Shown here: positions 60,311 to 64,000 of the stretch, piece after piece
How the letters are laid out: each line of letters opens with the position of its first letter
Position numbering within the stretch: the stretch's first letter is position 1
Assembly: GCA_013820875.1 (NCBI GenBank)
Contig: JACDHS010000008.1
Span: 277 to 64,276 of the forward strand
Direction: 5' to 3'
DNA from: Verrucomicrobiota bacterium
Lineage (GTDB): Bacteria; Verrucomicrobiota; Verrucomicrobiia; Limisphaerales; JACDHS01
DNA length: 64,000 nt
Translations under genes and position numbers: made by a program
The notes under the pieces: model-generated
Told to the model about the DNA's origin: nothing
Seen by the model: only the letters and a program-made list of their open reading frames with translations
The model's database searches: none

Positions 60311-60787
60311 ATGGAACGACGAACTTTTTTACAAATTGCGATCGCCACAGGAGGGTTGGTCACCGCTGCAATTGTTGCAATTCCCGTCATCGGCACTGCA
60401 TTGTCGCCGGTGCTGCGACGAGAATCCGGCGAGTTGTGGCAGCCAATTGGCGCATTGGAAAATTTCCCGATCGGCCAAATGACGAGGGCAAACGTCACTG
60501 TTCCACGCGATGACTGGTCGCAAACGCTTCGTGAAAAAGGGCTGTATGTCCTGCGCTCATCCAATGCCGAACTGATCGTCTTCTCGCGCAACTGCACCGA
60601 CCTGAGCTGCCCGATTGTGTGGGACGAAGGGAGTAACTGCTTTTTCTGTCCGTGCCACGGTGGAATTTTTTCACGTCAAGGCGACCCGATGAAGGGTCCA
60701 CCTAAGCGGGCGCTTTACCGTTACGCAGCGCGTGTGCGCAATGACACTGTGGAAATCGATTTAAGATCAGTTCCGCCGATGGCTTAA
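60311..60787 (+). CDS. Rieske iron-sulfur subunit (QcrA/PetA-like) with CTDLSC box I
   Basis: Tat-like MERRTFL plus TM helix; CTDLSCP and CPCHGG boxes; GPPKRAL. Confidence 0.9.
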   Translation: MERRTFLQIAIATGGLVTAAIVAIPVIGTALSPVLRRESGELWQPIGALENFPIGQMTRANVTVPRDDWSQTLREKGLYVLRSSNAELIVFSRNCTDLSCPIVWDEGSNCFFCPCHGGIFSRQGDPMKGPPKRALYRYAARVRNDTVEIDLRSVPPMA

Positions 60788-60796
60788 GGAAAAACT

Positions 60797-62209
60797 ATGG
60801 CGAAACGATGGCGCACATGGATTTCGGATCGGTTCGGGTTGCGCCGGGTGTATGAAGGGACACTGAATCGCCGCGTCGCCAAGAGCTCATGGTATTACGG
60901 CGATGGCGCCACGCTGACATTTCTCCTGGGGGTGTTGGTGGTGACGGGAATGTTCATGTCGCTCACCTACACGCCATCGCCTGATGGCGCCTATGAAAGT
61001 ATTCGATTTATCACCGAAAAGCAGGTGCTCGGATGGTTTGTGCGCGGACTGCACTATTGGGCGGCGGGAATGATGGTGGTGATGCTCTTCTTCCATTTGT
61101 TCCGCCAGATCCTCGTCGGAGGCTACAAGTTTCCTCGCGAAGGCACATGGCTGATTGGAGTCATTCTTTTTTTCGCAATTATCCTCATGTCGTTCACCGG
61201 GTACTTGCTGCGATGGGATGAACGATCGATTTATGCGCTGAAGGTGGCGCAGCATATGTTCTCTCGTTTGCCGTGGATTGGAGAGAGTGTTGTCGTTTTT
61301 ATCCAGGGAGGAACGGAACCCGGCGCAACAACGTTGACCCGGCTCTACGCCGTTCACGTAATTTTTGTGCCGGTGCTGTTGGGACTTTTTGTCATCTGGC
61401 ACATCTACCTTGTCATTATTCACGGGGTCACTTCACAAGAGGAACGGAATCAACCCATTTATACCGCTTCGCAGCAACGTCAACTTTATCGAGCCCAGGC
61501 GCGTTCCCGTGAGAAAGGCGAAAACTTCTTCCCGATGACTGTCTTCAAATCGGGGCTCATGGCCACGATTGTTTTTGCGATCGTTCTGACGCTCACGCTC
61601 ACTCTCGGCCCGCAGCGCCTCTATCCAGAGGCTGATCTCACCACGATTTCACGACCCATTGAGGAATGGTGGTTCTATTGGTACAGCGGTTTGATCGCGC
61701 TTTTGCCAAATACGATTGCGCCCTGGTTCGTTGTCATTTTTCCGATCGTGCTGTTCATCATTCTGATCTTGCTGCCGTTCATCGACCGCAGCCCCTGGCG
61801 CGGTTTTAAAAAACGGTTGTGGCCGCCGATTGTCGTCGGGATTTGTGTCATCGGAATTCTTTACCTCACCGATTTGCGCAGGCGCTCCCCCTGGACAGGG
61901 TGGCCGGACTCTGAACCTCCACCAGTTCCCGCAGGCGTGGTATTGTCACCGGAAGCGGAGCAGGGCAGGCAGTTGTTCGCGCAATACGGCTGTAACAGTT
62001 GCCATCCGATTTCGGGTCACGGCCGAAAAGTGGCCGTTGATTTCGGGCAAATTGAACGACGCCTTTCGCAGGATTACATTCGCGACTACATCCTGCAGCC
62101 GCCTGAAGGCATTGCCATGCCGGGTTATCGGGGTCGGATGTCGGCACAAGATCTTGAGCGAATCGTCGAGTTCGTTCTCGTGGCCCAAACCTTTCCGCGC
62201 AGCCAATGA
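60797..62209 (+). CDS. Cytochrome b fused to a C-terminal cytochrome c
   Basis: YTPSPDGAYES, LHYWAA, FHLFR, TGYLLRWD, YAVH, IWH heme-b ligands; CNSCH...AMP heme-c. Confidence 0.93.
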   Translation: MAKRWRTWISDRFGLRRVYEGTLNRRVAKSSWYYGDGATLTFLLGVLVVTGMFMSLTYTPSPDGAYESIRFITEKQVLGWFVRGLHYWAAGMMVVMLFFHLFRQILVGGYKFPREGTWLIGVILFFAIILMSFTGYLLRWDERSIYALKVAQHMFSRLPWIGESVVVFIQGGTEPGATTLTRLYAVHVIFVPVLLGLFVIWHIYLVIIHGVTSQEERNQPIYTASQQRQLYRAQARSREKGENFFPMTVFKSGLMATIVFAIVLTLTLTLGPQRLYPEADLTTISRPIEEWWFYWYSGLIALLPNTIAPWFVVIFPIVLFIILILLPFIDRSPWRGFKKRLWPPIVVGICVIGILYLTDLRRRSPWTGWPDSEPPPVPAGVVLSPEAEQGRQLFAQYGCNSCHPISGHGRKVAVDFGQIERRLSQDYIRDYILQPPEGIAMPGYRGRMSAQDLERIVEFVLVAQTFPRSQ

Positions 62210-63195
62210 AAGCTCCGCAAATTCGAACGGCCATTGCGCTCATGACAGCCACGCTGTTGTGCGGCTGCGGCGGAGAACATTTTCAATCCGTGCTTCACCC
62301 GGCCAGTCCTGAAGCAGGCGAGATTTCCCGGCTCTGGTGGTTCATGCTCGCAGTTTGCGGCACCGTTTTTGTCATTGTCATTGCGCTTTTGATTGTTGCG
62401 ATTGGAAGGCGCGGCAATCGCAAGCCGCAGGCGCCAGGGGGCGACGCCAAATTCGTGTTGATCGGAGGGATGCTGATTCCGGGAATCATTTTGTTCGTGC
62501 TGCTCATTTACTCCATCAGCGCAAAGGTCGTGCTCACGGGCGACGAACGAAACCTCACCATTCAAGTGATTGGTCACCAATGGTGGTGGGAAGTGCGCTA
62601 TCCCAATCAGGACATCGTCATTGCGAACGAAATCTACATCCCGGTCGGCGAACCGGTTCGTCTTCAATTGAAATCCGCCGATGTGATTCACAGTTTTTGG
62701 GTGCCAAACCTGCACGGCAAAATGGACATGCTGCCGGAACACATCAACACGTTTTGGATTCGCGCCGACAAGCCCGGCGTATATCGCGGCCAATGCGCGG
62801 AATTCTGCGGCGCACAACATGCATGGATGGCTTTTGAAGTCGTTGCGCTTTCGACAAATGATTTTCAACAGTGGGTTTCTGAACGCCGCAAACTAGCCGT
62901 CGAACAGGTGGCATCCGCGGAACGCAAATTCTCCCACGAAGTCTATATGCGCGTCGGTTGCGGCCAGTGCCATGCGATAAAAGGCACTTCTGCCGTCGCA
63001 CAGATCGGCCCCGACCTCACGCACTTCGGCAGTCGCCGAACCATTGGCGCGGGTTTGATGACCAACAATACGGAGACCCTGACACGCTGGATTCTCGCTC
63101 CGCAAAAGATGAAACCCGGCAATCTCATGCCGCACACGAAACTGACCGATGAAGAACTTCAGGAACTGGTCGCTTATTTGACTTCATTGAAATGA
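62206..63195 (+). CDS. ctaC: Cytochrome c oxidase subunit II with cytochrome c domain (caa3-type)
   Basis: Lipoprotein signal (LLCGC), GHQWWW, DVIHSFWVP, CAEFCGAQHAWM CuA site, CGQCH. Confidence 0.94.
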   Translation: MKAPQIRTAIALMTATLLCGCGGEHFQSVLHPASPEAGEISRLWWFMLAVCGTVFVIVIALLIVAIGRRGNRKPQAPGGDAKFVLIGGMLIPGIILFVLLIYSISAKVVLTGDERNLTIQVIGHQWWWEVRYPNQDIVIANEIYIPVGEPVRLQLKSADVIHSFWVPNLHGKMDMLPEHINTFWIRADKPGVYRGQCAEFCGAQHAWMAFEVVALSTNDFQQWVSERRKLAVEQVASAERKFSHEVYMRVGCGQCHAIKGTSAVAQIGPDLTHFGSRRTIGAGLMTNNTETLTRWILAPQKMKPGNLMPHTKLTDEELQELVAYLTSLK

Positions 63196-64000
63196 CAACG
63201 CGCCCGTTAACCGAATTTGAGAAAACCTGGAGTCCGGGTGTCAGCCGGGCTGCGCGCTGGTTTGCGGTGGTTAACAACCAACCGCTCGGAAAACGTTACA
63301 TGCTGACTGCCTTCGTCTTTTTTACAATCGGCGGTGTTCTTGCCCTGCTGATGCGCGTTCAACTGACTGTTCCCGAAAACAACCTGATCGACCCGCACGT
63401 TTTCAATCAGCTCTTCACGATGCACGGCTCGACGATGATGTTTCTCTTTGCGGTGCCATTCCTGGAAGGACTCACGCTCTACATTCTGCCGATGATGATT
63501 GGTTCGCGCGACGTTGCCTTTCCGCGTCTCACCGCGTTCAGTTACTGGACCTACCTGTTTGGAGGGATCCTTTTCTATTCGAGCTTCCTGTTCGGAACCG
63601 TTCCGGATGCCGGATGGTTTGCCTATACGCCGCTTTCCGGGCCGCGCTATTCCGGCCTGGGCGTGGACTTCTGGCTGCTTGGTTTGAGCCTGGTAGAAAT
63701 CGCTGGAATCACTGCCGGCGTGGAAATCGTCGTCACGATTTTGAAGCTCCGGGCACCCGGCATGACGATCAGCCGCATGCCGCTCTTCGTCTGGGCGTTG
63801 CTTGTGACCGGCGTGATGATTTTGTTCGCCTTCACGACACTGCTCGTAGCCACGGTATTACTTGAGATGGATCGCTCAATCGGCACGCGATTCTTTGATT
63901 CTGCCGCCGGGGGAAACAGTCTGCTCTGGCAACATCTCTTCTGGTTCTTCGGCCACCCGGAAGTTTACATCATGTTCCTTCCGGCAACCGGCATCGTCTC
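63192..64000 (+). CDS. ctaD: Cytochrome c oxidase subunit I (partial, runs off the window)
   Basis: Own translation from ATG 63192: FTMHGSTMMFLF, GWFAYTPLS, WQHLFWFFGHPEVY; absent from the track because it has no stop in the window. Confidence 0.95.
   Translation, partial: MTTRPLTEFEKTWSPGVSRAARWFAVVNNQPLGKRYMLTAFVFFTIGGVLALLMRVQLTVPENNLIDPHVFNQLFTMHGSTMMFLFAVPFLEGLTLYILPMMIGSRDVAFPRLTAFSYWTYLFGGILFYSSFLFGTVPDAGWFAYTPLSGPRYSGLGVDFWLLGLSLVEIAGITAGVEIVVTILKLRAPGMTISRMPLFVWALLVTGVMILFAFTTLLVATVLLEMDRSIGTRFFDSAAGGNSLLWQHLFWFFGHPEVYIMFLPATGIV

Follow-up and report, generated by a model that had tools for sequence, protein, structure and literature searches.

Heme-copper oxidases of the A family draw protons through the D and K channels, which in their canonical form are water files with an ionizable residue only at each end; of eight protons, the D channel carries six and the K channel two (PMC8239185). 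The closest described relatives of the enzyme reported here are the 'COX operon type a' oxidases of Degli Esposti, with fused COX1-3 and Caa3_CtaG (PMC4986455), also listed as 'A1 subtype a, COX13 fused' (PMC8239418, Table S1). They have a COX1-COX3 fusion of about 850 amino acids (aa), a COX2-cytochrome c fusion and Caa3_CtaG, and are spread over Proteobacteria and other phyla. Both papers classify them by operon layout and phylogeny and report no change in the D channel; the fused proteins were excluded from the trees as long branches, the table of K-channel residues has no Gln at K354, and Table S1 of PMC8239418 gives the K channel of type a as 'yes'. Here we analyze a member of this family from a Verrucomicrobiota bacterium of the Limisphaerales (GenBank assembly GCA_013820875.1). 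The window, by which we mean the whole 64,000-nt stretch under study (contig JACDHS010000008.1, positions 277 to 64,276 of the forward strand; G000:C126:277-64276), ends inside the gene for the catalytic subunit, a fusion of CoxI and CoxIII, and the remainder of this gene was read on the contig beyond the window. In contrast to the published entry, this enzyme and the clade that shares its Glu169 and Gln333, the two markers by which we define that clade, have Gln in place of the K-channel Lys and a rebuilt D channel. This is a real and conserved variant of A-family proton-channel architecture, and apparently an undescribed one: no description of Gln at site 362 with Glu in helices II and IV was found in the full-text literature, a coverage that leaves out subscription journals (e.g. 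Degli Esposti 2020, BBA). There is no solved structure within the Gln clade; those closest in sequence come from mycobacteria, Bacillus (aa3-600) and Thermus (caa3).

The caa3 oxidase of Thermus thermophilus is of A2 type, with a Tyr-Ser motif replacing Glu286 and canonical K and D residues. It resembles the clade in its I+III and II-c fusion architecture (2YEV), but the window enzyme differs from it in having GHPEVY, Gln at K362 and no Asn gate. K-less A-family oxidases, known from rus-operon acidophilic iron oxidizers, Thioclava and others (10.1101/2020.03.01.968255; PMC8239418), are like the clade in that both Lys362 and the entry Glu of subunit II are replaced. However, the iron-oxidizer type has an essentially intact D channel and a variable hydrophobic residue at the Lys site, whereas the clade has an invariant Gln and a remodeled D channel. 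A paralogue in the same genome (P0002) belongs to this K-less, intact-D type and is in that respect unlike the window enzyme.

We mapped the D-channel residues by alignment to E. coli CyoB and to the canonical paralogue of the same genome; the alignment is ungapped around the sites in question, and over residues 197-421 CyoB numbering equals R. sphaeroides numbering. The entry Asp is kept (Asp107 at D132), as is Glu286 (Glu257, within GHPEVY). Each of the three gate asparagines is replaced: Asn121 by Leu96, where EGLTLY stands in place of the GN motif; Asn139 by Thr114 (ACC at 63531); and Asn207 by Glu178, where GVEIVVT stands in place of INF. Offsets from matches to solved structures agree with this register (+25 then +29 for 1M56, -16 then -15 for bovine 1OCC), so that Thr114 corresponds to R. 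sphaeroides 139 and bovine 98. An earlier note on this DNA, made from the letters alone, had aligned these residues by eye, and comparison with the reference subunits showed it to be right on every point. The mapping adds four features to that account: Glu92, which lies inside the quoted EGLTLY; Glu169; the loss of the upper D-channel Ser/Thr sites (S197 to V168, T201 to G172 and T204 to A175); and Gln333, which is encoded outside the window.

A shifted alignment can be rejected, since the sites are aligned without gaps and residues 88-118 and 156-185 of CoxI-III contain no Asn; with none in helices II-III or helix IV to realign to, no alternative register rescues the Asn gate. The same facts tell against an ordinary canonical A1 oxidase whose substitutions are alignment artefacts or marks of a decaying paralogue. 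Such a protein would, like this one, pass the cut-off of the generic TIGR02891 equivalog, but the reading frame is intact over 837 codons and conservation in hundreds of relatives excludes decay, and we regard this explanation as scarcely credible.

Conservation was followed in 150 profile-search representatives, 80 genome loci, 120 closer relatives from a word-indexed search and the E. coli reference. The 120 near relatives, of which those sampled are about 55-63% identical to the window protein over the full length, share the altered sites. Glu92, Glu169, Gln333 and Asp107 are each present in 120/120; the Glu178 site is Glu in 118 and Asp in 2, and the Glu257 site is divided in the same way (118 Glu, 2 Asp). 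Site 96 is hydrophobic (L/V/I/M) in 119/120, and site 114 is Thr in 110 and Ser in 10. In a wide-clade set of 78 sequences selected for having both Glu169 and Gln333, Glu178 is found in 86% and Glu92 in 82%, site 114 is S, T, G or N, and the entry Asp site is D, E, N, S or A. In a canonical set of 81 sequences, selected for Asn at site 178 (hence 100% there) and Lys at site 333, site 169 is Gly in 93% and Gly is also the commonest residue in the Glu92 column. A private mutation is rejected by these surveys, both in the wide sample and among the near relatives. To judge from the alignments, the new residues (Glu92, Glu169, Gln333 and Glu178) are under purifying selection. Thr114 is a state particular to one subclade at a site that varies; what stays constant is the glutamates and the Gln. 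The earlier note had pointed to a natural Asn-to-Thr exchange at a known uncoupling site and had asked for a survey of the subfamily; the substitution is real, but Thr is only one subclade's version of one site within a clade-wide redesign.

A minor subtype, mainly from Burkholderiales, lacks Glu178, and 6/11 of its members have Glu or Asp at the T204 site, which lies one turn from the N207 site on the same helix face. This looks like a carboxylate that has been moved rather than lost, and the subtype seems to have reached the redesign by a second route. Several of these sequences (L011, L026, L029, L030, L034 and L043; Burkholderiales and relatives) have Ser or Ala at D132, and so no acidic entry residue, often with Gln at the Glu92 site and Val or Ile at the N207 site.

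The K pathway is altered in two subunits. The Lys362 site is occupied by Gln333 (L003:4465-4467, beyond the window end), and each of the 70 full-length clade members placed in the tree has Gln there. Around it, T359 corresponds to Ser330 and the Ser of the S299 site is kept as Ser270; Ser/Thr at the former site and Ser at the latter are mostly kept across the clade. For the partner subunit, the CoxII gene adjoining each locus was extracted and aligned to E. coli CyoA. In the window CoxII, Leu85 (codon at 62458-62460, checked) stands at the K-channel entry Glu (E. coli CyoA E89, R. sphaeroides E101); this column is V, L, I or A in 46/54 Gln-clade loci and Glu in 0/54, against Glu in 19/21 canonical loci. 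Both ionizable residues of the K pathway are gone in the clade, Lys362 being Gln and the subunit II entry Glu hydrophobic. Their joint loss from two subunits is the best indication that the clade makes no use of the canonical K pathway, and we infer that the K path no longer works in its canonical form.

In a FastTree phylogeny of 521 COX1-domain columns, the signature sequences form one branch of 74 rows with a Shimodaira-Hasegawa (SH)-like support of 99; 70 of these rows carry both Glu169 and Gln333, and the other four are internal variants. An IQ-TREE analysis of a 52-row subset recovered the same grouping (SH approximate likelihood ratio test, 99). The nearest groups outside are a small one with the motif GHPWVY and the canonical (N-D-N-G-N-E-K) fused CoxI-III proteins of Chloroflexota, Planctomycetota and Actinomycetota. 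Since canonical fused proteins are among these neighbors, the trees, which are unrooted, suggest that the channel signature is derived. The window enzyme is typical of this monophyletic clade, which spans at least nine phyla, with named members from Verrucomicrobiota, Bdellovibrionota, Planctomycetota, Chloroflexota, Acidobacteriota, Gemmatimonadota, 'Rokubacteria', Deinococcota and the alpha-, beta- and gamma-Proteobacteria; the closest named relatives of the window gene are from Limisphaerales, Opitutales and Phragmitibacter. Cultivable genera are represented (Mesorhizobium, Achromobacter, Delftia, Variovorax, Sphingomonas, Halomonas, Botrimarina and Phragmitibacter), which makes the clade's features testable in bacteria that can be grown. 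The GHPWVY sister group (P0007, P0036, P0028 and P0039) is unusual in its own right: it has Trp at the Glu286 site in helix VI and Ala, Val or Leu at Lys362, its Asn gate is intact where covered, and some of its members are I+III fusions of about 830 aa. We know of no description of the GHPWVY motif.

The catalytic machinery of the window enzyme is retained. The six His ligands, of which two serve the low-spin heme, one the high-spin heme and three CuB (H78, H255, H304, H305, H390 and H392, equivalent to E. coli H106, H284, H333, H334, H419 and H421) are invariant in 119-120 of the 120 near relatives, and Tyr259 of GHPEVY is present in 120/120, so that both cross-link partners, His255 and Tyr259, are kept. 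On the exit side, Arg452/Arg453 (E. coli R481/R482) and the Mg-site residues His382 and Asp378 are kept as well. By its six His and active-site Tyr the protein is, on sequence grounds, a heme-copper O2 reductase, and the CuA ligands and fused c-type heme domain of subunit II make it a cytochrome c oxidase of the caa3 type. A nitric oxide reductase or a quinol oxidase is ruled out: the Tyr, whose absence marks the nitric oxide reductases, is there, and so are all three CuB His, the CuA ligands and the heme c domain.

The overall identity of the gene product is equally clear: it is a CoxI-CoxIII fusion that serves as catalytic subunit in a caa3-type cytochrome c oxidase. Pfam COX1 (E 3.5e-154) is followed by COX3 (E 6.4e-11), and the NCBIfam CtaD_CoxA equivalog TIGR02891 scores 698.8 bits against a cut-off of 670.75. 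An AlphaFold2 model built from 38 relatives has a predicted local distance difference test score (pLDDT) of 89.3 and a predicted template modeling score (pTM) of 0.92, and its top whole-length fold match is the I+III subunit of T. thermophilus caa3 (2YEV_A; template modeling scores 0.84/0.90, 33% identity). Of the A1 features of Pereira 2001, it has the helix VI Glu of -GHPEV- (E257). The canonical D-channel residues are reduced to the Asp, with Leu96, Thr114 and Glu178 at the Asn sites and V168, G172 and A175 at the upper ones, and of the canonical K-channel set (Lys362, Thr359, Ser299 and subunit II Glu101) the two ionizable members are Gln333 and CoxII Leu85. The A2 subtype is rejected by the motif FFGHPEVY, as against FYSHPAVY in A2 members of the same alignment. 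By descent the enzyme is of the A family, as the clade nests beside the canonical fused CoxI-III of Chloroflexota and Planctomycetota and the TIGR02891 cut-off is passed, and by layout it is of COX operon type a, with a COX1-COX3 fusion, ctaG (Caa3_CtaG) and an adjoining COX2. Current annotation does not separate the clade, giving the generic CtaD equivalog name or, in JGI/KEGG style, "subunit I+III".

How would protons reach the active site of such an enzyme? As aligned here, the D path of the clade has its three gate asparagines replaced (Leu96, Thr114, Glu178), its upper Ser/Thr residues lost and glutamates added (Glu92, Glu169, Glu178). In the model, Leu96 and Glu178 lie at gate level, each about seven residues from the N-side end of its helix (II and IV, respectively); Glu92 lies above the gate, about 11 residues from the N-side end of helix II, and Glu169 is about 16 residues from that of helix IV (residues 156-185), roughly level with Glu257 and, by helix periodicity, offset by about 60 degrees from position S201 in the lining of the upper channel. 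Because the ligands, the His-Tyr pair and Glu286 are all kept, O2 would be reduced as in other A-family oxidases. The substrate protons and any pumped protons would all enter through the rebuilt D-type path, where a ladder of carboxylates, Asp107 to Glu178 to Glu92 to Glu169 to Glu257, would replace the Asn-gated water file. The enzyme would still conserve energy, possibly with a reduced H+/e- ratio. We consider the chances about even that the enzyme is such an energy-conserving oxidase, with protons entering by a carboxylate-lined D-type path and the canonical K path disabled.

Several observations weigh against this proposal. Gln333 is invariant rather than degenerate, which suggests that the K region still has a function. 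The K362Q variant of E. coli bo3 is reportedly inactive, so some compensation must exist in the clade if that is correct. That the Glu side chains face the channel is predicted from helix periodicity and depth only, and by the same periodicity Glu169 points about 180 degrees away from Glu178 on helix IV. Model enzymes become uncoupled when Asn139 or Asn207 gives way to a carboxylate, so that pumping in the clade may be reduced or absent. Finally, no biochemistry on any clade member was found in the full-text literature, subscription journals being outside its coverage.

The first of these points can be taken further, in that the K region might have become a neutral wire of Gln and water that still delivers the protons of the reductive phase, while the rebuilt D path carries the rest with normal coupling. 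The Lys-free K analogue of B-family oxidases would be comparable, and the fixed Gln (120/120 near relatives, and paired with Glu169 in 70/74 clade rows) together with the mostly kept Ser/Thr of the T359 site and Ser of the S299 site would suit such a wire; at the Lys site, other K-less A-type lineages vary among hydrophobic residues (I, V, L, M, F or A). However, the entry Glu of subunit II is lost with no evident replacement, and a specificity scan of the clade against canonical sequences found no new conserved polar residue in helices VI-IX. We think this arrangement unlikely. Far more remote is the idea that the path handles a metal cation, for instance Na+, by binding or conduction, either in place of protons or alongside them. 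All that speaks for it is that three or four buried carboxylates are stacked in a single channel, which is unusual; a cation-site motif is absent, the taxa concerned are ordinary inhabitants of soil and fresh water, and Glu286 and the proton exit features are kept.

The proposal of a carboxylate-lined D-type path can also be put in a stronger form, in which the clade consists of single-channel A-family oxidases that have abandoned the K pathway, with one carboxylate relay in the D position taking the full eight protons per O2, or a smaller number under reduced pumping. This we offer tentatively, as a possibility rather less likely than not. B- and C-family oxidases run on one proton input pathway (PMC8239185), as proposed here for the clade, and they reportedly pump fewer protons. 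What they retain is a K-type path, the D path being absent, whereas the clade, which is firmly of the A family by sequence, would do the reverse. If true, single-channel A-family oxidases would mirror the B and C families and provide a natural experiment on which features of the D channel are truly needed for gating and pumping.

Whether the clade pumps is a separate matter, and here the earlier note had gone further, proposing a low- or non-pumping A-type oxidase suited to O2 scavenging or redox spilling. Its premise agrees with the literature: N139T and N139D are cited as decoupling mutants, N131D, N139D, N199D and N207D keep turnover and lose pumping, and yeast N99D is uncoupled as well (PMC7196763). 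The decoupled laboratory variants (R. sphaeroides N139T, N139D and N207D, P. denitrificans N131D, yeast N99D) are changed at the same sites as the clade, with a carboxylate at 207, and Glu178 is a closer analogue of a decoupling mutation than Thr114. However, they are single changes in a canonical enzyme, whereas the clade is an evolved multi-site redesign under purifying selection, and phenotypes of single mutants are for that reason not transferable to it. Context matters even in R. sphaeroides, where the D132N/N139D double mutant pumps again (PMC7196763), which shows that the effects of these mutations depend on their background.

A naturally decoupled oxidase that reduces O2 and pumps few or no protons would accord with the residues at sites 139 (Thr) and 207 (a carboxylate), the combination resembling laboratory variants that lose pumping, and the genome has other oxidases, K-less A-type and cbb3-type, to which coupled work could fall. 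Against it stand, besides the restored pumping of the double mutant, the strict conservation of the new Glu residues, Gln333 and Glu286 across phyla, the retained exit-side residues, and the co-transcription of the gene with its own bc-type complex; moreover, a non-pumping oxidase would still conserve energy through its chemical protons. The kept Glu286, the Arg481/Arg482 equivalents, the Mg-site His and Asp and the operon's bc-type complex fit a spill valve no better than an enzyme that conserves energy. We therefore find the decoupled alternative doubtful: the assignment to the A family and the remodeling of the D channel at the named residues stand, the low pumping and O2 scavenging are unsupported as they were put, and the specific claim of uncoupling by Thr114 is too narrow and unproven.

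The outcome matters in either case. There is still debate over the way in which protons are gated between chemistry and pumping in A-type oxidases, and the evidence is drawn in large part from single mutations at Asn139, Asn207, Asp132 and Lys362. The clade is a natural test case, in which these sites have changed together and the changes are kept under selection in many phyla. If its enzymes pump, neither the Asn gate nor Lys362 is essential to the design; if not, widespread genes annotated "cytochrome c oxidase subunit I" yield less energy than metabolic models assume.

It is worth noting what other oxidases the source organism encodes. The paralogue P0002, a second A-family subunit I (G000:C183; L004:5234-7033, minus strand), keeps the whole D channel (N, D, N, N, E) and carries Ile in place of Lys362 and Cys in place of S299, as in the published 'K-channel modified' type, so that both A-type oxidases of the organism are without the K-channel lysine. 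Further heme-copper oxidase-like genes lie on contigs C58 (L088), C205 (L089, L091), C60 (L090) and C155 of the same genome (G000), and the one on C58 looks cbb3-type (GHNAV motif). Cytochrome bd subunit I was not found in this genome, which is estimated to be 99% complete.

The whole CoxI-III gene (L003:3469-5982) ends at window-equivalent position 65705 and belongs to a closely packed operon in the order Rieske protein, cytochrome b-c, CoxII-c, CoxI-III, a 130-aa open reading frame (ORF) and Caa3_CtaG (Table 1).

Table 1. Genes of the oxidase operon and proton-path residues of CoxI-III, in window positions unless stated otherwise (Ec, E. coli; Rs, R. sphaeroides)
Feature	Position	Strand	Remarks
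Rieske-type protein	60311..60787	+	First gene of the operon
Cytochrome b with C-terminal cytochrome c domain	60797..62209	+	Pfam
CoxII fused to cytochrome c domain	62206..63195	+	Pfam COX2 and Cytochrom_C; CuA motif and CxxCH
CoxI-CoxIII fusion gene, 5' part (269 codons)	63192..64000	+	Open frame 63192-63998, runs off the window
Glu92 (gaa)	63465..63467	+	Helix II, one turn further into the membrane from the Asn121 site
Leu96 (ctc)	63477..63479	+	Gate site Ec N124 = Rs N121 = bovine N80
Asp107 (gac)	63510..63512	+	Ec D135 = Rs D132, D-channel entry Asp, kept
Thr114 (acc)	63531..63533	+	Ec N142 = Rs N139 = bovine N98
Glu169 (gaa)	63696..63698	+	Mid helix IV, Gly198 site, beside the upper D-channel serines
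Glu178 (gaa)	63723..63725	+	Gate site N207 (bovine N163)
Glu257 (gaa)	63960..63962	+	Glu286, within GHPEVY
130-aa ORF between CoxI-III and CtaG	L003:5982-6374 (window-equivalent 65705-66097)		Outside the window

In the CoxII ORF, the motifs C-x-E-x-C-x3-H-x2-M and CxxCH can be read directly. The 130-aa ORF has no Pfam or NCBIfam match and is conserved only in the nearest relatives (L006, L007, L008 and G123); it is presumably a small oxidase subunit. We infer that in the source genome a dedicated bc-type complex, the product of this operon too, feeds the oxidase. Linkage to a bc complex was considered as a trait of the clade and rejected, as the Rieske and cytochrome b-c genes adjoin only in the nearest relatives (L007, Oligoflexus, and G123, probably Phragmitibacter). 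A typical Gln-clade locus contains CoxII, CoxI-III and CtaG only: CoxII is present in 56/61 loci and a Caa3_CtaG homologue in 47/61, some loci being incomplete. Stop-to-stop frames of about 1000-1250 aa at several loci, which might be taken for CoxII-CoxI-III triple fusions, have no CuA or CxxCH motif in them; the long upstream parts are merely open frames in GC-rich DNA.

The Rieske protein at the head of the operon has an oddity of its own. Its box II is a normal CPCHG, and its box I reads CTDLSC, with Asp replacing the His ligand. The same Asp is found in both other genomes with the six-gene operon (L093/L103 in G123, and L007:3102-3557), whereas C-x-H is kept in seven other Rieske homologues from a 200-genome sample of the phylum and in those beside canonical oxidases in Planctomycetota. 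The operon's Rieske protein may hold a 2Fe-2S center with unusual ligation.

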